This document shows positions 5,026 to 33,044 of a stretch of DNA of 64,000 nucleotides, one piece after another. The position numbers were made by a program, and so were the translations under genes. The DNA comes from an uncultured delta proteobacterium (lineage in GTDB: Bacteria; Desulfobacterota; Binatia; Binatales; Binataceae), in the NCBI GenBank assembly GCA_963789115.1, contig CAWBJH010000001.1, forward strand, positions 969,419-1,033,418, written 5' to 3'. Under the pieces are notes generated by a model. The model saw only the letters and a list, made by a program, of their open reading frames with translations, did not search any database and was not told where the DNA came from. Position 1 is the stretch's first letter. Every line of letters begins with the position of its first letter.

Positions 5026-8000
5026 TTATTCGCTCGGGCGTGGCGCGCTTTGGCTGAGGGTGCTTCTGTCTCGATAGACGAGGTAATAGATGAGGGGCAC
5101 CACGATCAGGGTGAACGCAGTCGAAGCGAAGATGCCGAAGATGAACGCCCACGCCAGCCCCGAAAAAATTGGGTCCAGCGTAATCACCGCGGAACCGAGC
5201 ATCGCGGCTCCCGCAGTAAGCGCGATGGGCCGCAGGCGGATCGCGCCTGCTTCCAGAATCGCGTCCTCCAAGCTGAGTCCACGCGCGAGGCCGCGATGAA
5301 TGAAGTCGATCAGAATGATCGAGTTGCGCACCACGATGCCTGCCAGGGCGATCATTCCGATCATCGCCGTCGCTGTGAAGAAAGTGGGATCAGGAAAACC
5401 CGCCACGGGGCGGTTGGTCACCAGGTCGAGCAGGAAGAAGCCCGGCATGATGCCGACGAGGGTAAGCGGAATCGCCGCCATAATGATGAGCGGCATCGCG
5501 AGCGATTCAGTCTGCGCAACCAGCAGCACGTAGATAAAAAAGAGCGCGGCGCCGAAGGCGAGTCCGAGGTCTCGGAAGACCGTTACCGTGATGTTCCACT
5601 CGCCCTCGCCGCTCCAGTCGATCGTATACCCTGACGGCAGCAGACTTCGTGTGTGATGTTCCAGCCAGAGGACTTCGTTCACCGGACTTACGCCGGCGGT
5701 GTCTGCCATTACCATCGCGACCTGCCGCAAGTCCTTACGGTAGATCGGCTGCTCCTCGACGGTGCTTCGAACTTCGCCGAGCTCGCCGAGGGGCACCATA
5801 CTCCCGTCAGACCCGCGGAGCTTCAGCGCCATCAGCCTGCTGGAATCGGAGCGCGCGGCCCGCGGCATCCGGAGTTCGATCACCAGCGGGTCGCGCTCGG
5901 TCTCGGTATGAACGATGTCTACCGCGTCGCCGCCGAGCATCAGCGCGAGAGTCTGCGCGACGTCCGCCGTCGCGATGCCGTGAAGTGCCGCCTTCTCGCG
6001 ATCCAGGACGAATTGCAGGCGCGGTTGGGCAGCGACGGAGAAATCATCGGTATCGACGAGACCGGCGGTGCGATCGAACACGTGCCTGAGCTCGCGTCCA
6101 TAAGCGATGAGCCGTGGGTATTCGGCTCCGGGCGGGCCGTAGATTTCGGCGACGATCGTCTCCAGCACCGGCGGCCCGGGCGGCGCCTCGACGATCTTGA
6201 CCTTCGCGCCATGCTTTCGCGCGATCGCTTCTACCAAGGGCCGGATTCGAAGCGCGATCTGATGTGAGGATTGCACCCGCGCGGTCTTTGCCGCGAGATT
6301 GATCCGAATGTCGGCCTGCCAGGGCGCGCGCCGCACGTAGTAGTGGCGGACCATCCCGTTGAAATCGAACGGGGAGGGAACGCCGGTATAAGACTCGAAA
6401 TCGGTGACTTCCGGCACTCTGCTCAGCAGCCCGTCGAAATCGCGCGTCACCCCATCGGCCGATTCCAACGGCGTACCTTCAGGCATGTCGATTACGAGCT
6501 CCAATTCGCTCTTATTGTCGAACGGCAGCATCTTGACCGGCACCAGGCCGAACACCACGAGCAGGATCGAGACGGCGAGGGCGCCACCCACGCCCAGCAG
6601 GAAAAGTCGCGCTCGCCGGCGATCTTCGAGCAGCGGACGCAGAATCCGCGCGTACCAGCGCCTGATCGTCGCCCCGTCGTCGGGTTTCTCCGCGCCGGAT
6701 GCGGGCGAGTGCTCGCGACCCAGCAGGTGATATGCAGCCCACGGCGTGATCGTGAACGCCACCACCAGCGATGTCAGCATCGCGAGCGGGACGTTGAACG
6801 GCATCGGCCGCATGTACGGCCCCATCATCCCGGTCACGAACAGCATCGGGATAAACGACGCGATGACCGTGAACGTCGCAAGGATCGTGGGCGGTCTCAC
6901 TTCGTCCACGGCGATCAGCGTGGCCTCGCGCCGCGGATGGGTGCCGAGCCGGAAATGACGGTGGATGTTCTCGACGTCGACGATCGGATCGTCGACCAGC
7001 AGGCCCAGTGACAAGATCAGCGCGAACAGCGTGACCCGGTTGATCGTATAACCCGCGATCAGATTGCCTAGCAGCGTGATCGCAAGCGTGATGGGGACCG
7101 CGATCGCAACGATGAACGCCTCCCGCGGCCCCAGCGAAAACGCAAGCAACACCACGATGATTCCGACCGCTACCAGCAGCTCTCTGACCAGTTCGTTCAC
7201 CTTCTCGTTGGCCGTCTCTCCGTAGTTGCGCGTAACGAGAACGTTCACGCTGGAAGGGATGGCCACGCCTTTGAGCGATTCGACCTTGCTGATCAGTCCT
7301 TCGGCCACTGCGACCGCGTTGGTGCCGTGCCGCTTGGCGAACGCGATCGTAACGGCCGGATAAAGCTGCGCGGGATCTCCGAGCGAATACAACTTCAATT
7401 GGCCCGGTTCCTTGAACAGATGTTCGCGGGCCGGGCCGAAGGCAATCGTCGTATACGCATCCGGTTCAGCCGGACCATCGATCACCCGCGCTACGTCGCG
7501 CAGATAGACGGGATGCCGGTCGCGCACTGCAACGACCAGGTTTGAAACCTCGGCTGCGCCCGTGAGAAACGGACCGCTATCGAGAACGTACTCGCGATCG
7601 TTGTGGGCAAAGCTGCCTGCGCGGAGGTTGGCGTCGGCGCCACGAAGGGCGTGCGCTACATCGAGAGGGTCGAGTCCACGGCCGGCAAGGCGGTCGGCAT
7701 CGAGCAGCACGCGAATTCGGCGTGGCCGACCGCCGGCCACGAACGAGCGCCCCGTGTCGGGGACCTCCTGCATACGATGCAATATTTCGTCGGCGACACG
7801 GCGCAGCGCGGGGTCGGTTTCGGTTTTGCTCCACAGCGTAACGTTGAGAATCGGCACGTCGTCGATTCCGACCGGTTTAACGATCCATCCGGTTACGCCG
7901 GGCGGAACCGCATCGCGGTTGGACTCGAGCTTGTTGTAAATCTGCACCAGGCTCTTGATTTGGTCGTAGCCCACGCGGAAACGGACCGTGACCATCGCCA

Positions 8001-8295
8001 TCCCCGGCCGCGACACGGAGTAGATGTGCTCCACCCCCTCCATTTCCCACAGGCGTTTCTCGAGGTTGATGGTGACGAGATTTTCGACTTCGGCGGCGCT
8101 CGCGCCCGGCATCTGAACGATGATGTCGGCGAGCGGTACCGAGATCTGCGGGTCTTCCTCGCGCGGCGTAACCAGCAGTGCTACCACCCCGGCGGCGAGC
8201 GAGGCGACAAGCAGCAGCATCGACAGGTTCGATCCCAGGAACCGGTCGACAATTCGCGCCGTCAGGCCCAGCTCTGCTGGAGCCGTTTCGTTCAC
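5026..8295 (-). CDS. RND efflux transporter permease subunit (HAE1/AcrB family)
   Basis: 1089 aa, 12-TM RND architecture with two large periplasmic loops. GTG start overlapping the stop of the upstream adaptor gene. Confidence 0.9.
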   Translation of the reverse strand: MNETAPAELGLTARIVDRFLGSNLSMLLLVASLAAGVVALLVTPREEDPQISVPLADIIVQMPGASAAEVENLVTINLEKRLWEMEGVEHIYSVSRPGMAMVTVRFRVGYDQIKSLVQIYNKLESNRDAVPPGVTGWIVKPVGIDDVPILNVTLWSKTETDPALRRVADEILHRMQEVPDTGRSFVAGGRPRRIRVLLDADRLAGRGLDPLDVAHALRGADANLRAGSFAHNDREYVLDSGPFLTGAAEVSNLVVAVRDRHPVYLRDVARVIDGPAEPDAYTTIAFGPAREHLFKEPGQLKLYSLGDPAQLYPAVTIAFAKRHGTNAVAVAEGLISKVESLKGVAIPSSVNVLVTRNYGETANEKVNELVRELLVAVGIIVVLLAFSLGPREAFIVAIAVPITLAITLLGNLIAGYTINRVTLFALILSLGLLVDDPIVDVENIHRHFRLGTHPRREATLIAVDEVRPPTILATFTVIASFIPMLFVTGMMGPYMRPMPFNVPLAMLTSLVVAFTITPWAAYHLLGREHSPASGAEKPDDGATIRRWYARILRPLLEDRRRARLFLLGVGGALAVSILLVVFGLVPVKMLPFDNKSELELVIDMPEGTPLESADGVTRDFDGLLSRVPEVTDFESYTGVPSPFDFNGMVRHYYVRRAPWQADIRINLAAKTARVQSSHQIALRIRPLVEAIARKHGAKVKIVEAPPGPPVLETIVAEIYGPPGAEYPRLIAYGRELRHVFDRTAGLVDTDDFSVAAQPRLQFVLDREKAALHGIATADVAQTLALMLGGDAVDIVHTETERDPLVIELRMPRAARSDSSRLMALKLRGSDGSMVPLGELGEVRSTVEEQPIYRKDLRQVAMVMADTAGVSPVNEVLWLEHHTRSLLPSGYTIDWSGEGEWNITVTVFRDLGLAFGAALFFIYVLLVAQTESLAMPLIIMAAIPLTLVGIMPGFFLLDLVTNRPVAGFPDPTFFTATAMIGMIALAGIVVRNSIILIDFIHRGLARGLSLEDAILEAGAIRLRPIALTAGAAMLGSAVITLDPIFSGLAWAFIFGIFASTAFTLIVVPLIYYLVYRDRSTLSQSAPRPSE

Positions 8296-9389
8296 TTGGT
8301 ATCAACTGCGGGGCTGTCGAGGATGACGCGCTGGCCCGCACGAAGCCCGGCGAGGACCTCTACGCGATCGCCAAAACGGCGCCCCAGCGAGACCATCTGG
8401 GTCTGAATTCTTCCTTCAGAAATCACGCGCGCGGTGTCGAGCTGACCCACCTCTTCGATTGCATCGCGCGGCACGGTGAGGACCGTCTCGCTTCCGGTCG
8501 TAAAGGTCGCCCGCGCGAACATTCCCGGCTGGAGATGCTGGCCGCTCGGCAGCGGCGCACGAACTATGAAGCTCCTGCTCGTCGGATCCGAAGCGGGCAC
8601 GATTTCGGTTACTTGCGTGTGGTACTCCACGCCGGTCGCGTCGACCCTGACCTGGAGCAGTGTTCCAGTGTCGATGCTGCGCGCCAGATCCTCGGGCACC
8701 TCCAGTTCGACTCGCAGCGCGTTCTTGTCGTAGAGCCGGACTAGCGGCTTACCCGGCATCGCCATGTCGCCCGGCTCGGCAAGGCGTTCCACGACCACGC
8801 CGTCGACCGGCGAGCGGACGGTTGCATACTCCAACGCCGCGCGCGCCGCTGCGACCGCGGCTTGGGCCTGCGCAACTCTTCCCGTCGCGCCTCGGTACGC
8901 GGCCTCGGCGGCGTCGTGTTCGCTCGCTGTCACGGAGCCGCGCGTGAACAGCGCCGAGAACCGCTTCTCGTCCGCGCTGGCGCGGCTCAGCTCGCCTTGC
9001 GCCGCGGCCAGTTGCCCCTGAGCCTGTGCAACCTGGGCTTTGAGTTCCGCAGCGTTGAGCGCGACGATCGCCTGTCCACGGTTCACCCGGTCACCCGCGC
9101 GGACCCCGACTTCGGTGACGCGCGCAGCGATACGGCTTGCCGCCTCGACCGGGAGCCTCGACTGGATCGAGCCGATCACCTCGCGACGCACGGGGATCTT
9201 CTCACTGAGCACCACTCCGAGCGGGCGGCTTGGAATTTGATCGGCGCTCTGACTGAGCAACCCCGGCTCGATCCTGCCGCCCCGAATCACTCGGACCGCG
9301 AGCCAGAGCAGGGCGATACCGATCGCGGCTGCGAGCAGATAACGCCATCCGGGGCGCACATGGCGCGATTCGGTTAACAGGTCTGCCAT
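8292..9389 (-). CDS. RND efflux periplasmic adaptor (membrane fusion protein)
   Basis: N-terminal TM, coiled-coil hairpin (AQVAQAQGQLAAAQGEL), beta-barrel and MP domains. Start trimmed to MADLL (ATG 9389). Confidence 0.8.
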   Translation of the reverse strand: MADLLTESRHVRPGWRYLLAAAIGIALLWLAVRVIRGGRIEPGLLSQSADQIPSRPLGVVLSEKIPVRREVIGSIQSRLPVEAASRIAARVTEVGVRAGDRVNRGQAIVALNAAELKAQVAQAQGQLAAAQGELSRASADEKRFSALFTRGSVTASEHDAAEAAYRGATGRVAQAQAAVAAARAALEYATVRSPVDGVVVERLAEPGDMAMPGKPLVRLYDKNALRVELEVPEDLARSIDTGTLLQVRVDATGVEYHTQVTEIVPASDPTSRSFIVRAPLPSGQHLQPGMFARATFTTGSETVLTVPRDAIEEVGQLDTARVISEGRIQTQMVSLGRRFGDRVEVLAGLRAGQRVILDSPAVDTK

Positions 9390-13934: not shown

Positions 13935-14194
13935 CCTGTAGGTTTCCTTCCTGCTACTCGTTGACCTTGTAACAAGAACCGCCCATCGCTGCTACGGAAC
14001 CGGCCCGGCCTCACTGCGGGCTGGTTCCTTCGACGTCACGCGATGTCACGCCGCCTTCAGCGGCTTGTACCGAAGTCACGGCACTTCTCCCACCGCCGGC
14101 ATGGAACGCCGCTTGAGTCTCGGCGGGGTTTGGGCGTAGATAGGGCCGGCGATGACCGCGCGCGAGTGTCGGCACCTGCGCGGTCCGCTTGCGC

Positions 14195-15556
14195 ATGAAT
14201 AACTTCATTGCCGCGCGCACGCTCCAGACCTACCCGGTCGGCGCTTATCGATGGCTGATGCTGGGGCTGACCGTGCTCGCCACGATCCTGGCCTCCTACG
14301 AATTTCAACTCGCGCCGCTGCTGCCGATACTGCTGCCCTTCCTGCACATGAGCCATCTCGGCTACGGCTACTTCATCACTTTCATCGTGCTGGTCTCGGG
14401 AGTCTCCGCGTTCGTCGGCGGTCCGCTTGCCGACCGCTATGGGCGCGTGGTCTTGATCGATATCTGCCTCGGCGCGGTGACGATCCTCACTTTCTCCAAC
14501 GTGCTGATCACCGGGGTGGTCTCGTTCGTCCTGATCCGGACCGCGATGGGAATAGTCGGCGGACTGATGGCGGGCGCGGGCGCGGCGCTGGTGCGCGACA
14601 TGTCGCCGCGCCTGAGCCGCGCAACCGCCTTCGGCCTTTTCACGATCGGCCCGGTGGGCGCCAGCTTTCTGGCCAACGCGATCGCGGGTGCGACGCTGCC
14701 GGTCTTCCACACCTGGCAATCGCAGATCTGGATCATGGGGGCGCTGGGCGTCCTGATGTACATCCCGATCCTGCTGTGGCTCAAGGACTTGAGCCCGGAG
14801 CTGCGCCTGCAGGTCTTCCGCAGCGAGATTGCGGCGATGCAGGCCGAGGGGCGGCGCATTCCGAGCGCGGCCGAGATACCGGCCAGCGCGCGCGAGGCGT
14901 TTGCCGCCCTACTCGAGCATGCCGAAGTATGGCTGCTGGTAATCGGCGCCACCGCGAACCTGACGCTTTACTTTGCGATCCAGGCGTTCGGCCCGCTGAT
15001 GTTCACCGAGGCCTATCACTACAGCCCCGCGGTCGCGGCCCGGATGAACGCCAACTTCTGGTTCACCAACCTCGCGGTGCTGATTGTCACCGGAATGGTC
15101 TCCGACCGGCTCGAGTCGCGAAAGCCGATCGCGATCATCGGCGGTATCCTGAGTGCGGCGTTGATGTGGCTGTGGGCTGGAACCTTCGGCCACCAGATCT
15201 CGCCCACGACGGTCCGGGCAATCGCGACGGTGCTGGGATGCGTCCTGGCGGTCGGCTATGTGCCGTGGGCCGCGCAGTTCTCCGAGACGCTCGAGGACGT
15301 GTCGCCGGCATTGCAGGCAACGGGATGGGCGTTTTTCGGGCTGATCGCGCGCGGATGGGTGGCAATCTCGGCGCCGCTCAGCCTGTTCGTCGCAATCCAC
15401 TACGGATGGGGCGCGTGGGTCAGGGTCGCGATGATCGGGATGATTCTCTACGTGGGCGCGATGTGCCTGTCGCGCACGCGCTTCGCGATGTCGAAGGCGG
15501 TTGAGCCGGGCAAAGCCGCCGAGCTCGCCAAGGCCGCCTCCGGCGCCCTGGAGTAA
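14195..15556 (+). CDS. MFS transporter
   Basis: 12 predicted TM segments; GGPLADRYGR between TM2 and TM3. ATG 14195 chosen over the track's TTG 14189. Confidence 0.85.
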   Translation: MNNFIAARTLQTYPVGAYRWLMLGLTVLATILASYEFQLAPLLPILLPFLHMSHLGYGYFITFIVLVSGVSAFVGGPLADRYGRVVLIDICLGAVTILTFSNVLITGVVSFVLIRTAMGIVGGLMAGAGAALVRDMSPRLSRATAFGLFTIGPVGASFLANAIAGATLPVFHTWQSQIWIMGALGVLMYIPILLWLKDLSPELRLQVFRSEIAAMQAEGRRIPSAAEIPASAREAFAALLEHAEVWLLVIGATANLTLYFAIQAFGPLMFTEAYHYSPAVAARMNANFWFTNLAVLIVTGMVSDRLESRKPIAIIGGILSAALMWLWAGTFGHQISPTTVRAIATVLGCVLAVGYVPWAAQFSETLEDVSPALQATGWAFFGLIARGWVAISAPLSLFVAIHYGWGAWVRVAMIGMILYVGAMCLSRTRFAMSKAVEPGKAAELAKAASGALE

Positions 15557-15566
15557 GAATTGTACG

Positions 15567-15593
15567 CCCCCGGCCAAATTGGCGCGCCGGGGT
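15567..15593 (+). terminator. GC-rich hairpin after the MFS gene
   Basis: ccccggc...gccgggg 7-bp inverted repeat with an 11-nt loop. No U-tract, so intrinsic-terminator status is uncertain. Confidence 0.3.
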
Positions 15594-15651
15594 CGTAAAA
15601 GGGGCGGCGCCACCGACAATCTATGCGGCCCTGGACAGAGGGAAGCCACGA

Positions 15652-16284
15652 ATGACCAGCAGCGTTGAACAACTTTTTTGGGGAGGTCCGGGCAGCGTCT
15701 GGTACTGGCACTTTCTGGGTGTGCTCACTGGCCTGTGGTGTGGCTCCATCTTAGGCGCGTTCATAGCGCATTCTGTCAAACTTCTCGGACTGCTCCGAGC
15801 TGAGGCGAGTGGCCAAACAGGCCATGCGAGTGAGACAGTCGGCGCTATCCGCTCGGTGGTTAGCGTTGTCACGGGCGCGGTGCTCGGCCTCTGTGTCGGC
15901 GGCTTGATGGGTGGCTGGCTGCTGTTAGCGTTTGTCCTGTCTCATGTCCCCCTATGGCGCCTTCCCGAAGAACCGCCTTGGATAAATCCGCTAGATAGGC
16001 TGGTTGTATCGGTCCGCATTGACGAAGCGTTTGGCTCTCAAGTGGGTAGGGTGTTCGTGAATATGCGTAACGTGATGACCCAGTATGGCGGGCTCGCCGG
16101 TGGCGTCATCGGTGGTTTGGTCTGGCTGCGCATCGAGGCTGTGGTCGTCGGGACCATTCTCTTCGGAATCATCGCCAGGCTGATGTCTTTCGCCGTCGTG
16201 ATCTTCTGCGGGCGCTTGGCTGAAAGGAGACTCGCACTCAGACATACGGCTACTGCACCGAGCCGCGTGCGGCCGCTAGACTAG
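15652..16284 (+). CDS. hypothetical 4-TM membrane protein (lower-GC islet)
   Basis: 210 aa, several hydrophobic helices. GC visibly lower than flanks and uses tta/ata codons. Confidence 0.5.
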   Translation: MTSSVEQLFWGGPGSVWYWHFLGVLTGLWCGSILGAFIAHSVKLLGLLRAEASGQTGHASETVGAIRSVVSVVTGAVLGLCVGGLMGGWLLLAFVLSHVPLWRLPEEPPWINPLDRLVVSVRIDEAFGSQVGRVFVNMRNVMTQYGGLAGGVIGGLVWLRIEAVVVGTILFGIIARLMSFAVVIFCGRLAERRLALRHTATAPSRVRPLD

Positions 16285-16346
16285 TAGTCGCCATCCGGCG
16301 TCCCGGCGCGCGTCCTGAGCACGCCGAAGCCCGAGGATTAGGAGGT

Positions 16347-16823
16347 ATGCAGCGAGAAGAGGTCAAAAGGAGGCTCTGCAATGCTTTGCGGGAGGTCAAT
16401 GAGAAAGACGCGATTCTTCTTGAGTACGACGTCAGTGAACGCTGTATTGCTTCTCGATTGGCGATGTATCTTCAAGCGCGGTTTCCCGGTCATTCGGTTG
16501 ACGTTGAGTACAACCGCGATGGGGGTGAACCCAAGCGGCTGAACCTGCCCGGGGAGTGCGCGAACCGGTGGGACCGCTATGGCAGCTCTCTTGTGGTGCC
16601 CGACGTGGTACTGCACCGGCGCGGACGTGGGGGTGCTAACCTGCTCGTGCTAGAGTTGAAGAAACTCGGTGATCCCGACGCCTTGGAATGCGATTCCAAG
16701 CGCGTGCGGGCGTTTCGACACACATTCGGGTACACCTTCGGTGCATTGATCGGGTGTGAAACGCGAAAGGGCCATACACCCAGAGTGGCGCTCTCCAAGT
16801 GGTTTGACGACCAAGAACCGTGA
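16347..16823 (+). CDS. hypothetical protein with PD-(D/E)xK nuclease-like motif arrangement
   Basis: 158 aa. E (VDVEYNR) then PD (VVPDVVLH) then ExK (LLVLELKK) spacing typical of the restriction-endonuclease fold. aggagg before ATG. Confidence 0.45.
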   Translation: MQREEVKRRLCNALREVNEKDAILLEYDVSERCIASRLAMYLQARFPGHSVDVEYNRDGGEPKRLNLPGECANRWDRYGSSLVVPDVVLHRRGRGGANLLVLELKKLGDPDALECDSKRVRAFRHTFGYTFGALIGCETRKGHTPRVALSKWFDDQEP

Positions 16824-16832
16824 CTTTATGGG

Positions 16833-18395
16833 CTAGGGCCGCATCGTCCGGGTGCGGATGCCGAGCTGGGTCGGAATGATATTCTCGTAGGCCAGGCGCA
16901 CCCAATCGACCAGTAGCGGGCGCGTGTCGCGCGGATCGATTATCTCCTCGATCCCAAACGCCTCGGCGGTGCGAATCGGCGAGCGTACCGCGTTGAATCT
17001 CTCCTCCAGCTCGCGCCGCAGCTTTTCCGGGTCCGCCGCCGCCGCCAGGTCGCGCTTGTAGGCCGCCTCGATTCCGCCCTCGATCGGGAGCGAGCCCCAA
17101 TCCCCCGACGGCCACGCATAGCGCAGGTTGATCCCGCTCGTGATTCCATGGCCTGCGCCGGCAACGCCGAACGCGCGCCGCACCACGATCGCCACCCACG
17201 GCGTCACGGTCTGGAAGACCGCGTAGAGCGCGCGCACCCCGCGCCGAATCGTCCCCGCCATCTCGGCCTCGCGGCCGATCAGAAAGCCGGGCTGATCGAC
17301 GAAGTTCACCACCGGCAGATGGAACGTGTCGCACATATCGACGAAGCGCACCATCTTGTCCGAGGCCGGCCCGTCGAGCGAGCCGCCGATCTGATACGGG
17401 TCGTTGATCATCACGCCCACCGGGTAGCCGTCCAGGCGCGCGAAGCCGGTTGCCAGCGAAGGGCCGAAGTAGGGCGCGATCTCGAAGAACGAGCCGCGAT
17501 CCATCACCAATTCGACAATCCGCCGGCAATCGTAGCCGTGACGCCGATTACGCGGCACGATCGAAATAAGCTCCTCCTCGCGCCGGCCGGGATCCTCGCT
17601 CGGCGCGATCCGCGCCGCCACCTGCCATACGTTGGAGGGCAGGTAGGAAAGGAAGCGGCGGATTTGCACCAACGCGTCGTCCTCGCTCTCGGCCTCGTTG
17701 TCCACCGCGCCGCTGGCATGAGCGTGGATATCCGAGCCGCCCAACTCCTCCTTGGTCAGGTCCTCGCCCACGCCAAATTTGACCACCGGCGGACCGGCGA
17801 CGAAGAGCTGGCTCGTCCCACGCACCATCACCGAGAAATGCGAGGCCGCTACGCGCGCAGCACCCAGCCCCGCCACCGAGCCCATGCACGCCCCGATGAC
17901 GGGAACCTCCGCCATCAGCTTGACCAGCACGTCGAAGGCCGGATTGGCGGGTACGTAGGTGCGCCGGAGCTTGTCTAGCGAGCGCACGCTGCCGCCACCG
18001 CCCGTGCCGTCGACCAGGCGGACCATCGGGAGGCGCAGCTCATGCGCCATCGTCTCGAAGTACAACTGCTTGCTGCCGATCGAGGCGTCGGCCGCCCCGC
18101 CGCGCACGGTAAAGTCGTCGCCGCCCACGACCACCCGGCGGCCCTCGATTCTGCCGGTGCCTCCGACGAAGTTGGCCGGCATGAAGTCGGCCAGCTTGTC
18201 GCCTTCGTATTTCGGGCTGCCGGCCAGCGCGCCGTATTCGTGGAACGAGCCGGCATCGAGCAGCCGTTCGATCCGTTCGCGGACGGTCAGCTTGCCGCCG
18301 TCATGCTGGCGCTTGATATTTTCCGCCCCGCCCATCCGCCCGGAGATTTCCACGCGGCGGCGGATTTCATCGACTTCATCCTGCCAGTTTTTCAC
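16833..18395 (-). CDS. acyl-CoA carboxylase carboxyltransferase subunit (PccB-like)
   Basis: Duplicated crotonase-like carboxyltransferase halves. Start set at GTG 18395 (MKNWQDEVDEIRRR) preceded by gggagg; the track ORF extends 83 codons upstream without a credible start. Confidence 0.9.
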   Translation of the reverse strand: MKNWQDEVDEIRRRVEISGRMGGAENIKRQHDGGKLTVRERIERLLDAGSFHEYGALAGSPKYEGDKLADFMPANFVGGTGRIEGRRVVVGGDDFTVRGGAADASIGSKQLYFETMAHELRLPMVRLVDGTGGGGSVRSLDKLRRTYVPANPAFDVLVKLMAEVPVIGACMGSVAGLGAARVAASHFSVMVRGTSQLFVAGPPVVKFGVGEDLTKEELGGSDIHAHASGAVDNEAESEDDALVQIRRFLSYLPSNVWQVAARIAPSEDPGRREEELISIVPRNRRHGYDCRRIVELVMDRGSFFEIAPYFGPSLATGFARLDGYPVGVMINDPYQIGGSLDGPASDKMVRFVDMCDTFHLPVVNFVDQPGFLIGREAEMAGTIRRGVRALYAVFQTVTPWVAIVVRRAFGVAGAGHGITSGINLRYAWPSGDWGSLPIEGGIEAAYKRDLAAAADPEKLRRELEERFNAVRSPIRTAEAFGIEEIIDPRDTRPLLVDWVRLAYENIIPTQLGIRTRTMRP

Positions 18396-18688
18396 CAAGT
18401 ACCTCCCGCGCTCCGTTGTCGCGGTTTTGCGGCTCGCGGTTCTTGTTCCCTCGACTACGTGCCTCGCGGTGGCCCGATCGTAGCATTTTCGACCGCCTGC
18501 CTCCCGCGCTGCCAAAGCCCTGAGACCCAACCCTTGGCAGGGCTCAGGGCGTTCGGCTGCGCCGAATGGTTTCTTAACCGGCGCGCGGCCTGTTAGCATC
18601 GAAGGCCGGAAAAATCGCGATGACGGCCGCATCCACAGACGCAATCGCCGGCGCCCGCAGCGCGGCCACGTCGCCTCGCGCGCGCAGC

Positions 18689-20035
18689 ATGAGGCTCAGC
18701 GGATGGGGCCGCTATCCGATCGCGCAAGCGCAGGTCTACCGCCCCGAGAAAATCGCGGAACTGGCCGCGATCGTATCCGGCAACGCGACCAGCCTGATCG
18801 CGCGCGGCGCCGGTAAAGCTTACGGCGACGCGGCGTTGAACGATCGCAACCGGGTGGTCGATATCGGCCGCCTCAACCGGATGTTGAGCTTCGACCCCGC
18901 CACCGGCGTCCTGCGATGCGAGGCGGGAGTGACGCTGGCGGAGATGATCGACGTCTTCCTGCCGCGGGGTTTCTTCCCGTCGGTCACCCCAGGCACCAGG
19001 TTGGTAACCGTGGGCGGCTCGGTCGCTGCCGACGTCCACGGCAAGAACCATCATCGCGACTCCTCGCTCGGCAGTCATGTACTGAGCCTCGACCTGATGC
19101 TCGCCTCGGGCGAGGTGCGCCGTCTCTCGCGCGAGCAGGAGCCGGAGCTTTTCTGGGCGACGATCGGCGGGATGGGACTGACGGGAGTAATCCTCGAAGT
19201 CGAGCTTCGCCTGCACAAGGTCGAGAGCGCATGGATCGAGGGCGAAGTGATTCGCGCCCGGGATCTGGATGAGGCGATCGAGACCTTCGAGCGCTCCGAC
19301 CGCGAGTACGGTTACTCGGTGGCCTGGATCGATTGCGCGAGCCGGTCCGACAGCGGCCGGCTCGGCCGCTCGGTGATCAACCTTGGAAATTTCGCCGCGC
19401 GCCAGAGCCTTGGCGGTATGAAATTAGCCGCTCCGTTTCGCGGCCGGCGCCGGCTTCGCGCTGCGGTGCCGTTCGACCTGCCCAACTTCGCGCTCAGTTC
19501 GCCCACCGTCCGCGCCTTCAACGCCGCCTACTTCGCGCTCCATCGCGGCGGTCGCGGACGCAAGCTGATCGATTACGAAAGCTTTTTCTACCCGCTCGAC
19601 TCGATTCGCAACTGGAACCGCATCTACGGCAAGCGCGGCTTCGTCCAGTACCAGTGCGTGTGGCCGCTCGCCGAGAGTCGCGAGGGACTAATCGAAACGC
19701 TGGAGCAGATCGCGCGCAGCGGGCGCGGCTCGTTCCTGACCGTGCTCAAGAAATTCGGGCCGCAGGAAGGGATGCTATCGTTCCCGATGCCCGGTTACAC
19801 GCTGGCGCTGGACTTCCCGCTCGCAGAGGGACTGTTCTCGTTCCTGGACGGCCTGGATGAGATGGTGCTCAAACGCGGCGGGCGCGTGTACCTGGCCAAG
19901 GACGCGCGGATGAGGCCGGATGTGTTCCGCGCGATGTATCCGAACTTGGCGCGATGGCAGGCGGCCAAGGCCGCGGTCGACCCGAACAACCGCTTCTCGT
20001 CCTCGCTCTCGCGCCGGCTCGCGATGGAGCCCTAA
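18689..20035 (+). CDS. FAD-dependent oxidoreductase, DprE1-like (decaprenylphosphoryl-beta-D-ribose 2'-oxidase family)
   Basis: LSGWGR, ARGAGKAYGD, VTVGGSVAADVHGKNHH, ELFWATIGGMGLTG, YQCVWP and C-terminal AKDARMRPDVFRAMYP...RRLAMEP all match conserved DprE1 blocks (from memory of the M. tuberculosis sequence). Start trimmed to MRLSGWG (ATG 18689). Confidence 0.85.
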   Translation: MRLSGWGRYPIAQAQVYRPEKIAELAAIVSGNATSLIARGAGKAYGDAALNDRNRVVDIGRLNRMLSFDPATGVLRCEAGVTLAEMIDVFLPRGFFPSVTPGTRLVTVGGSVAADVHGKNHHRDSSLGSHVLSLDLMLASGEVRRLSREQEPELFWATIGGMGLTGVILEVELRLHKVESAWIEGEVIRARDLDEAIETFERSDREYGYSVAWIDCASRSDSGRLGRSVINLGNFAARQSLGGMKLAAPFRGRRRLRAAVPFDLPNFALSSPTVRAFNAAYFALHRGGRGRKLIDYESFFYPLDSIRNWNRIYGKRGFVQYQCVWPLAESREGLIETLEQIARSGRGSFLTVLKKFGPQEGMLSFPMPGYTLALDFPLAEGLFSFLDGLDEMVLKRGGRVYLAKDARMRPDVFRAMYPNLARWQAAKAAVDPNNRFSSSLSRRLAMEP

Positions 20036-20098
20036 ATGAAACTGGCTGCCTTCCTATAGTTTTCACCCTCCGGGGGAGACTACAGAGGGGTTAAACCG
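19915..20098 (+). repeat. direct repeat copy 1 (3' end of the dprE1-like gene plus about 60 bp downstream)
   Basis: About 92% identical to 20600-20785. Contains the 16-bp core ctgccttcctatagtt. Confidence 0.8.
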
Positions 20099-20144
20099 CC
20101 TGCCCTCCTATAGTTGCGTTAGGAATTACAGACCGAGGCATAAA

Positions 20145-20597
20145 ATGAAGATCGAATACGCGGTTCTAGCTGATGCGGCTCAAGCAGTTGGCGGCAAGGT
20201 TTTTATCCTTGGTGGCGGGTGGAACGTTTTCCGTGCAGCAAACTATCCCACACCGATCCAGCTTGCCGTCGCGGTCGGGATAGCTTTCACGCTCAACGAG
20301 ATCGGCATCAAATATCCTCTGAGCCTCGTGATCGCGGACGAAGCGGGTGTGCCAATAGTCCCAGAAATGAAAGGGCAAGTAGAAACTGGTCAACTCCCGC
20401 CCGATGCTCCCAAGGGCGTACCGATAAACGTGCCGCTGGCGGTCAACATGAACTTGTCTATTCCCCGCCCCGGCAAATACGGAGTTCTGGTCACGGTTGG
20501 TTCCTCCAAGGCACAACTGTCGTTTGACGCAATCTTCGTGGGCCAGAAGGTGCAGCTCGCGCCTCCTGAGGATTCTGCATTGGAGCGTGGCAACTAA
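20145..20597 (+). CDS. hypothetical protein, cargo of the short insertion
   Basis: 150 aa (MKIEYAVLADAAQAVGGKVFILGGGWNV...), no recognised family. Lower GC than flanks. Confidence 0.45.
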   Translation: MKIEYAVLADAAQAVGGKVFILGGGWNVFRAANYPTPIQLAVAVGIAFTLNEIGIKYPLSLVIADEAGVPIVPEMKGQVETGQLPPDAPKGVPINVPLAVNMNLSIPRPGKYGVLVTVGSSKAQLSFDAIFVGQKVQLAPPEDSALERGN

Positions 20598-20599
20598 AA

Positions 20600-20785
20600 G
20601 CCGGATGTGTTCCGTGCCGATGTATCCGAACTTTGCGCGATGGCAGGCGGCCAAGGCCGCGGTCGGCCCGAACAACCGCTTCTCGTCCTCGCTCTCGCGC
20701 CGGCTCGCGATGGAGCCCTAAATGGAACTGGCTGCCTTCCTATAGTTCTCACCCTGCGGGGGAGACTACAGAGGGATTAATGGCG
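20600..20785 (+). repeat. direct repeat copy 2 (displaced diverged copy of the dprE1-like 3' end)
   Basis: Encodes ...MYPNFARWQAAKAAVGPNNRFSSSLSRRLAMEP* in frame but detached from any gene body. Abuts the dprE2-like start. Confidence 0.8.
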
Positions 20786-32444: not shown

Positions 32445-33044
32445 CTAAAAGTTGATGTACCTTTCCAAACGCAACGGCTGCACGGCTGCTTTCAGGTATA
32501 CCTCGGCAGTCAAATTGAACTGACCCCAGGCGGCGGTCTGCAGCTGGAAATTGGTCTCTCTGTTCGTGATTTCTCGGGTCGGATCTCGAAAGGTCGGATG
32601 AAGGTGGTAGGCAACCCTGCGGACAGCATCTAAGTCGGAATCGTCCTCACCTTCCAGAGAGATTCGTAGGCGGTAGTACTGGTACTCTCCTTGGTCGAGG
32701 TCTCTAGCCCGCCTGGCAGTGTGAATAAGGTAAAGACGGGAACGGTTAGATTGTAAGTTCGTCGATGCGTCCTTCGCCGTTCCTTCGGGGTATTGCTCGC
32801 TTTGCACTACGGATTCATCAACTGCAGCTGTTCCAACAAGCTCCTTGGCCACGATACGGTGGCCTTCTCCTAGCTTGACACCGCTCGTTCCTGCCTCGAA
32901 GGGGTCACCGGCTTCTACGCGCAGCCGAATGGCGTCCAAGAGCCGCCCTACCGCCCGGCGATATCGAAAAGCCACAGCAGCTATTATTAACGGCCAGGTC
33001 AACGCCTCTAGCGCGGTCTGAAATAGTGGTATCCAGTCCTTCAT
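32445..33044 (-). CDS. membrane-anchored protein with C-terminal YEATS-like domain
   Basis: N-terminal TM (IPLFQTALEALTWPLIIAAVAF). C-terminus RVAYHLHPTFRDPTREITNRETNFQLQTAAWGQFNLTAEVYLK aligns with the eukaryotic YEATS core (VVFHLHESFPRPKRV...[21 protein letters not shown]). GC about 52%. Confidence 0.5.
   Translation of the reverse strand: MKDWIPLFQTALEALTWPLIIAAVAFRYRRAVGRLLDAIRLRVEAGDPFEAGTSGVKLGEGHRIVAKELVGTAAVDESVVQSEQYPEGTAKDASTNLQSNRSRLYLIHTARRARDLDQGEYQYYRLRISLEGEDDSDLDAVRRVAYHLHPTFRDPTREITNRETNFQLQTAAWGQFNLTAEVYLKAAVQPLRLERYINF

Follow-up and report, generated by a model that had tools for sequence, protein, structure and literature searches.

We analysed a window of 64,000 nucleotides from the metagenome-assembled genome of an uncultured bacterium of the Binataceae (GenBank assembly GCA_963789115.1, contig CAWBJH010000001.1, positions 969,419 to 1,033,418 of the forward strand). 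The subject of this work is a small islet within it, in which two genes, here called A and B, lie on the same strand between two convergent core genes. Gene A encodes a membrane protein, and gene B encodes a predicted small nuclease homologous to PD-λ-3A, a component of the Escherichia coli defence system PD-λ-3. The islet and its borders comprise the following features (positions are those of the window):

15557–16832, no strand: 1276-bp insertion specific to this genome, filling the gap from stop codon to stop codon of the convergent major facilitator superfamily (MFS) transporter and carboxyltransferase genes (from synteny comparison and third-codon-position composition)
15652–16284, plus strand: gene A, 210 amino acids, membrane ORFan (from the open reading frame call and homologue alignment)
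16333–16345, plus strand: Shine-Dalgarno-like purine-rich stretch GAGGATTAGGAGG, directly 5' of the ATG of gene B (from reading of the sequence)
16347–16823, plus strand: gene B, 158 amino acids, member of the PD-λ-3A family and predicted PD-(D/E)xK nuclease (from PADLOC and the AlphaFold2 model)
14189–15556, plus strand: MFS transporter, core gene, left border (Pfam MFS_1, E=2.7e-26)
16833–18644, minus strand: acyl-CoA carboxyltransferase (PccB-like), core gene, right border (Pfam Carboxyl_trans, E=2.3e-95)

The frame given for the carboxyltransferase is the maximal open reading frame (ORF), and its true start probably lies further in. The gap between A and B is 62 bp, and the stop codons of B and the carboxyltransferase are 9 bp apart.

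A first-pass annotation made from the letters of the sequence had placed two co-oriented genes at 15652–16823 and described their GC content and codon usage as distinct from those of the flanks. Both ORFs were found at exactly these coordinates, and the compositional contrast holds as well. GC content at third codon positions (GC3) is 0.659 in A and 0.642 in B, against 0.76–0.87 overall in the flanking genes: 0.871 in the MFS gene, 0.855 in the carboxyltransferase, 0.841 in the neighbouring flavin adenine dinucleotide (FAD) oxidase and 0.856 in the glutathione S-transferase (GST). Sliding GC content at 15600–17000 is 0.585–0.60, with 0.65–0.69 on both sides. The overall GC content of the islet, 0.594, corresponds to the 11th percentile of equal-sized windows in the 64 kb. 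This dip is modest, and it is therefore the contrast in GC3 together with the comparative evidence that makes the islet clear. A and B are genuine genes and not chance ORFs, since B has 206 homologues of matching length and the three homologues of A can be aligned with it without frame-breaking gaps. The start position of B agrees with that of its homologues. Searches for Rfam RNAs, promoters and terminators in and around the islet returned nothing above chance.

We compared the locus with 80 metagenome loci encoding MFS orthologues at 50–82% identity. The gene order GST (−), nitroreductase (+), biotinyl carrier (−), MFS (+), carboxyltransferase (−), FAD oxidase (+) and short-chain dehydrogenase/reductase (SDR, +) is kept in about 35 of the 80 loci, and the carboxyltransferase orthologues in syntenic contigs are 81–88% identical. 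In at least 20 related contigs, the spacer between the stop codons of the MFS and carboxyltransferase genes measures 7–10 bp (or the genes overlap by 4 bp), compared with 1276 bp in the window. Neither A nor B is present at any of the 80 loci. A few related contigs have a hairpin-rich spacer of 40–190 bp, and four loci (L122, L162, L083 and L108) show other fillings: L122 contains a duplicated MFS paralogue inside the gap, and the nearest relatives, L083 and L108, which lack the carboxyltransferase, hold a Phd/YefM-like ORF, a permease and a methyltransferase instead. The length of the spacer, the absence of both genes from the 80 loci and the drop in GC3 show that 15557–16832 is genome-specific, horizontally acquired DNA at a lineage-variable site: it is missing from the orthologous site in relatives, and its composition is deviant. 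A mobility signature (repeats, an integrase or transposase, a tRNA target) was not found at the islet. The direct and inverted repeats flanking its borders are short and at chance level, and no integrase or transposase ORF lies within it.

Across the related contigs, both the MFS/carboxyltransferase and the carboxyltransferase/FAD-oxidase spacers are recurrent insertion hot spots (L083, L108, L122, L162, L090, L103 and L111). Their cargo varies, and includes the MFS paralogue, the Phd/YefM-like ORF with permease and methyltransferase, and a protein of 1102 amino acids.

The product of gene B (18 kDa, isoelectric point 8.6) carries the NCBI annotation 'hypothetical protein'. It matches the PADLOC profile PD-Lambda-3_A (PDLC03986) with E=3.1e-27, residues 8–139 aligning with positions 18–147 of the 159 in the profile, and is 39% identical over 143 amino acids to the PD-λ-3A protein of the E. 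coli plasmid p22Q34-1 (BLASTP, E=2e-25). The first-pass annotation had recognised no known family in either protein by eye. For B this is wrong, given the PADLOC match; A has no match there or in any other library. Pfam, NCBIfam and PHROGs contain no family for B, and a search with a B-family profile across all PDB sequences gave no match. A large protein collection yielded the 206 homologues of B, nearly all of them 153–157 amino acids long and unannotated. Residues E31, D52, E54, Y55, N56, R57, D86, H90, R92, E103, K105 and D116 are near-invariant in 78 family members and are all kept in B; E31, D86, E103 and K105 are conserved in 75–78 of the 78. With all family-invariant residues present, B looks functional and catalytically intact.

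B also has four cysteines (C33, C71, C115 and C137) that are near-invariant in a soil clade only and are absent from the E. coli protein; some family members have the set in partial combinations. A Cas4-like iron-sulfur cluster was considered for these cysteines and not adopted, as they are clade-specific and occur in partial combinations. Their pattern presumably differs from the C...CxxC...C arrangement of the Cas4/AddB iron-sulfur nucleases.

An AlphaFold2 model of B, built from 32 homologues, has a pLDDT (predicted local distance difference test score) of 87.8 and a pTM (predicted template modelling score) of 0.85. Its elements are a helix at 31–45, strands at 49–53, 87–91 and 98–106, a helix at 110–127 and a strand at 131–138. 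As modelled, this order can be assigned with confidence to the α-β-β-β-α-β core of PD-(D/E)xK nucleases. The first helix carries E31, strand two has P85-D86 at its beginning and strand three contains E103-L-K105; this arrangement bears out the E...PD...(E)xK spacing that had been noticed in only 158 amino acids. A Foldseek search against viral predicted structures (BFVD) returned nine matches at E<=1e-3, eight of which are named PD-(D/E)xK proteins and one is unnamed; they include Cas4 (6e-5), a haloviral PD-(D/E)XK nuclease (2e-4) and six herpesvirus UL24 proteins. The matches in the PDB are weak and of the same class: Cas4 SSO0001 (E=0.015), a tRNA-splicing endonuclease, EcoRI and λ exonuclease. 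B accordingly has the core fold, the catalytic residues and the structural likeness to established members that characterise the PD-(D/E)xK superfamily, and the earlier proposal of a small nuclease of this class agrees with the fold prediction, in which almost all Foldseek matches belong to it. In the model, E31, D86, E103 and K105 would form a classical metal-binding site cleaving phosphodiester bonds, and by analogy with other enzymes of such size B probably acts on DNA as a homodimer. For B we infer nuclease activity, a DNA substrate, dimerisation and a role in defence.

PD-λ-3 was described in E. coli ECOR28 by Vassallo et al. (2022) as three genes in 2759 bp (PMC9519451), and acts through abortive infection (PMC9519451; PMC13190303). 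PD-λ-3A is matched by HHpred to BpuSI_N (92%) and PDDEXK_3 (91%) (PMC9519451, supplementary tables), PD-λ-3B is a HEPN protein with AbiJ_NTD3 and Hypoth_Ymh, and PD-λ-3C is a β-propeller protein (PMC9519451). The three-gene system has been reported in Proteobacteria only (bioRxiv 10.1101/2024.10.26.620412). We found a complete PD-λ-3 beside BREX on the E. coli plasmid p22Q34-1, encoding proteins of 159, 267 (TIGR02391) and 477 ('restriction endonuclease') amino acids; PADLOC confirms its PD-λ-3A and PD-λ-3B genes. Searches of the 64-kb window by tblastn with the E. coli proteins recovered neither PD-λ-3B (best E 1.7) nor PD-λ-3C (best E 0.96), and neither gene lies within 6 kb of the B relative at any of 80 loci retrieved from other genomes. 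The locus thus contains the PD-λ-3A homologue and lacks the adjacent second and third genes. With the HEPN/TIGR02391 and β-propeller genes absent, it is not a PD-λ-3 system, and B is probably solitary. It could also be supposed that B, as a homologue of PD-λ-3A, belongs to a split PD-λ-3 whose HEPN and β-propeller partners lie elsewhere in the genome, and the partner search covered 64 kb of a contig of 3.66 Mb. We regard this as extremely improbable: the three genes are contiguous in E. coli, no partner was found in the 64 kb, and the lack of partners at all 80 loci indicates that the solitary state is the rule for the family.

A PD-λ-3A-like gene is also present, unannotated, on a Klebsiella IncFII plasmid (L179, 4001–4384) and about 20 similar ones. 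It covers only residues 10–139 and adjoins an IS5 transposase, and the gene on many Klebsiella/Raoultella plasmids is therefore probably a truncated pseudogene.

A scan of species-representative genomes detected 162 relatives of B, and 80 of these loci were retrieved. The relatives occur, among other taxa, in Acidobacteriota, Gemmatimonadota, Nitrospirota, several proteobacterial classes, Flavobacteriaceae and many Clostridia, and further in Patescibacteria, a Parachlamydia and a Halorubrum. BLAST clustering of the neighbours at 73 B-family loci revealed no conserved partner. The exceptions are lineage-specific: synteny on a conjugative element in Flavobacteriaceae, a partner of 311 amino acids in one group of Bryobacteraceae, and a methyl-directed restriction enzyme of the DUF6998 type at two loci. 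Genes of defence or of mobile elements are frequent among the neighbours, for example OLD/GajA-like ATPase-nucleases, ResIII/DEAD helicases, Schlafen, FRG and S24 peptidases. Relatives also stand with ZacA/ZacB beside a TrwC/TraG conjugation module, near a BsuBI restriction enzyme, AIPR and SMC-like ATPases, near PD-T4-7 and a methyl-directed restriction enzyme or near IS66, IS630 and DUF433/DUF5615 toxin-antitoxin genes. We found 49 plasmid records with a B relative, 38 of them conjugative. A search of 2.9 million viral contigs in IMG/VR with motifs specific to the soil clade detected no relative, and 50,697 phage records contained one. By guilt by association, the family behaves as a solitary accessory-genome cassette with a defence-island flavour.

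Neighbourhood analysis also showed that the homologues of B lack conserved housekeeping synteny, and this bears on the idea that B is a housekeeping nuclease of DNA repair or recombination in the size class of Vsr and Hjc. The length of 158 amino acids and the fold class would fit such an enzyme, and some homologues adjoin genes for a tRNA synthetase, QueC or PfkB. Such a role is nevertheless very unlikely, as B is absent at the locus in all closely related genomes, its codon usage looks foreign, its distribution is patchy, no Dcm-type methyltransferase is adjacent, and the protein matches neither Vsr nor Hjc nor any Pfam or NCBIfam family. The behaviour of the family as a mobile single-gene cassette suggests that B is most likely an accessory nuclease of the defence type (or a selfish one) and not a housekeeping enzyme.

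A purely selfish, homing-type nuclease that spreads into intergenic sites, with defence not its function, would also be a single-gene cassette with ever-changing neighbours in many phyla. Some genomes do have more than one copy, and the insertion into a spacer of 7–10 bp took place without repeats, integrase or transposase. We consider this explanation quite improbable for B. The homologues tend to lie next to defence genes or on conjugative elements, one of them is part of a defence system that has been validated, and viral and phage records are nearly devoid of relatives. Moreover, B arrived with, or beside, another gene in the window, and the duplicate copy in one Vicinamibacterales genome lies within a multi-gene repeat of 2.6 kb and not as a lone gene. 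The two copies of this repeat (L022 and L023, both 5703–8314; 2612 bp, 100% identity) hold the B homologue and are 4 Mb apart.

The same repeat also holds genes for proteins of 375 and 214 amino acids without a Pfam or PADLOC match, and may be an uncharacterised mobile unit. In the Bryobacteraceae (L006, 6001–7440; L169–L172, 5001–6440), the B homologue is followed by the protein of 311 amino acids, which is 80% identical between loci and belongs to no family. At L169 this pair lies inside the island with the BsuBI restriction enzyme, AIPR and SMC-like ATPases; the partner may be lineage-specific.

Gene A encodes a basic protein (isoelectric point 9.9) with four long hydrophobic helices at about 16–53, 58–98, 138–159 and 161–200, corresponding to 4–5 membrane-spanning segments by hydropathy and the model. 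It has glycine-zipper-like GxxxG runs and a conserved loop of 40 residues, LPEE...P.D.L..S..ID.AFG. Pfam, NCBIfam, PADLOC and PHROGs contain no family for it. We found two homologues among 5.8 billion clusters and three among 1.84 billion representatives in an exhaustive HMMER search, at 45–58% identity, one of them a C-terminal fragment of 122 amino acids. An AlphaFold2 model from the three-sequence alignment is all-helical, with a pLDDT of 54.7, too poor for a structure search. The final 12–15 residues of A are not common to the homologues, and such a tail fits a recombination junction just before B, as judged from the alignment. At two of the homologous loci (L001, 1128–1966; L002, 713–1566), the A homologue is followed by homologous two-helix membrane proteins of 69–78 amino acids (44% identity, E=1e-21); this small partner was not found in the window. 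At L001 the A homologue adjoins an MFS orthologue in the opposite orientation, without B and with other small cargo genes.

The L001/L002 pair is in itself a tiny conserved two-gene membrane module. L001 further contains a DUF2283 ORF and an ORF of 197 amino acids that resembles an ADP-ribosyltransferase by eye ('GYHGC...GIYFWE') and has no Pfam match.

The first-pass annotation had regarded the membrane protein and the nuclease as a layout that recurs in abortive-infection and toxin modules. In this form, A and B would be a new two-gene module of a membrane sensor, anchor or pore with a minimal nuclease, serving as an abortive-infection or toxin/immunity pair. Part of this proposal has a basis: B is homologous to PD-λ-3A of a validated system, and membrane-tethered nucleases exist in defence, such as SNIPE/PD-λ-1 (PMC13190303). 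A and B are on the same strand with a gap of 62 bp, no terminator is predicted between them, their GC3 values are similar, and their shared absence from the 80 syntenic loci would allow for one joint insertion. The pairing does not recur, however. None of the three A loci has a B relative nearby, two of the A homologues being paired with the small two-helix protein instead, and at L001 the homologue stands beside the MFS gene without B. B relatives had no A-like neighbour at any locus inspected: 80 of the 162 genome loci, 4 plasmid loci and about 10 metagenome loci. Membrane proteins are not enriched among the neighbours at B-family loci: 10/116 (8.6%) against a background of 46/576 (8.0%; Fisher p=0.85). 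The non-homologous C-terminal tail of A also points to a junction of two separately derived pieces. The reading of A and B as a module is not supported by these comparisons, and we judge it unlikely; their adjacency would be a secondary juxtaposition and not a conserved two-gene system.

Overall, gene B is probably a solitary PD-λ-3A-like nuclease gene that was acquired horizontally, and A an unrelated, lineage-restricted membrane ORFan beside it. Foreign DNA would have landed in the very short spacer of two convergent core genes, at a site that holds other cargo in relatives. B, which belongs to the PD-λ-3A family of PD-(D/E)xK nucleases of about 155 amino acids, would be a catalytically intact, stand-alone enzyme, and this family would act as a single-gene cassette hopping among variable regions, defence islands, conjugative elements and stretches rich in insertion sequences. 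A may come from a different small module, the one that elsewhere pairs it with the two-helix membrane protein of 69–78 amino acids.

Several points weigh against this explanation. The co-orientation of A and B, their 62-bp gap, their similar GC3, the lack of a predicted terminator between them and their joint absence from related loci mean that the two genes may have arrived together and may be co-transcribed, and non-conservation of the pair elsewhere leaves local cooperation possible. The immediate neighbours in the window are ordinary metabolic genes and do not form a defence island. B matches experimentally determined structures only weakly (best PDB E=0.015, template modelling score ~0.4), and the search for PD-λ-3 partners in the host extended over 64 kb of the 3.66-Mb contig. 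The nuclease activity, substrate and defence role of B are predictions, and a lone active nuclease would have to spare its host.

Other stretches of the window also deviate in composition. A second low-GC islet at 19915–20780 contains a DUF6941 ORF (20145–20597, plus strand; Pfam E=9e-16, GC3 0.60) between direct repeats of about 180 nucleotides with 96% identity (19915–20094 and 20600–20780). The repeats are two copies of the FAD-oxidase 3' end together with the spacer downstream of it, and the FAD-oxidase/SDR spacer in related contigs measures only about 30–250 bp. This islet resembles a small insertion that duplicated a long target. Within the low-GC region at 31.8–33.4 kb, the minus strand encodes a protein of 198 amino acids with a prokaryotic YEATS domain (32445–33041; PF20305, E=1e-21), adjoined by an ORF of 281 amino acids without a Pfam match. 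The low-GC stretches at 43.6–46.0 kb and 56.8–60.1 kb (down to 0.53) contain ORFs of 150–400 amino acids without a Pfam family, and may be accessory DNA.

What is new here is a solitary member of a family already present in defence databases, together with an ORFan. The PD-λ-3A component belongs to a much larger, mostly solitary, multi-phylum family that travels in defence islands and mobile elements without HEPN and β-propeller partners. Given this solitary state, the nuclease may be a self-sufficient module that was recruited by PD-λ-3, a system with a validated abortive-infection phenotype; this would guide the dissection of PD-λ-3. The locus is also a clean case in nature of genes inserted into a convergent spacer of 7–10 bp, at a hot spot of the Binataceae lineage. 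The finding is otherwise ordinary and modest: one ORFan and one hypothetical nuclease gene, neither of which gives evidence of a new mechanism. A wider proposal is doubtful, and we offer it tentatively: the solitary PD-λ-3A-like proteins might be an autonomous family of single-gene defence nucleases, widespread in soil Acidobacteriota, Binatota, Nitrospirota, Bacteroidota, Firmicutes and also haloarchaea, the soil clade possibly having a four-cysteine metal site that stabilises or regulates it, of which the enterobacterial PD-λ-3 would be one elaboration, and which here would perhaps be coupled to the ORFan membrane protein as a membrane-linked two-gene system.

Three known systems can be compared with the islet. 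SNIPE/PD-λ-1 is a single polypeptide with a transmembrane segment, DUF4041 and GIY-YIG (Saxton et al. 2026; PMC13190303). The likeness, a membrane element with a nuclease, is superficial: the islet encodes its membrane protein and its nuclease in two genes that are not found together at other loci, the nuclease has another fold, and B lacks a membrane segment. With small PD-(D/E)xK nucleases such as PvuII, Hjc, Cas4/RecB-type enzymes and UL24, B shares the core, the glutamate of the first helix, the PD and the ExK. It differs from PD-(D/E)xK nucleases in general by the additional invariants DxEYNR (first strand), H90/R92 and D116, by the lack of an adjacent methyltransferase, and by the lack of a significant Pfam, NCBIfam or PDB sequence match. 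The differences from PD-λ-3 extend to the host, a member of the Binataceae and not a proteobacterium, and to the soil-bacterial clade of B, whose four conserved cysteines are missing from the E. coli protein. PD-λ-3A itself has nearly the same length as B (159 and 158 amino acids) and the same invariant motifs: ER..., DxEYNR, PD..H.R and ExK.

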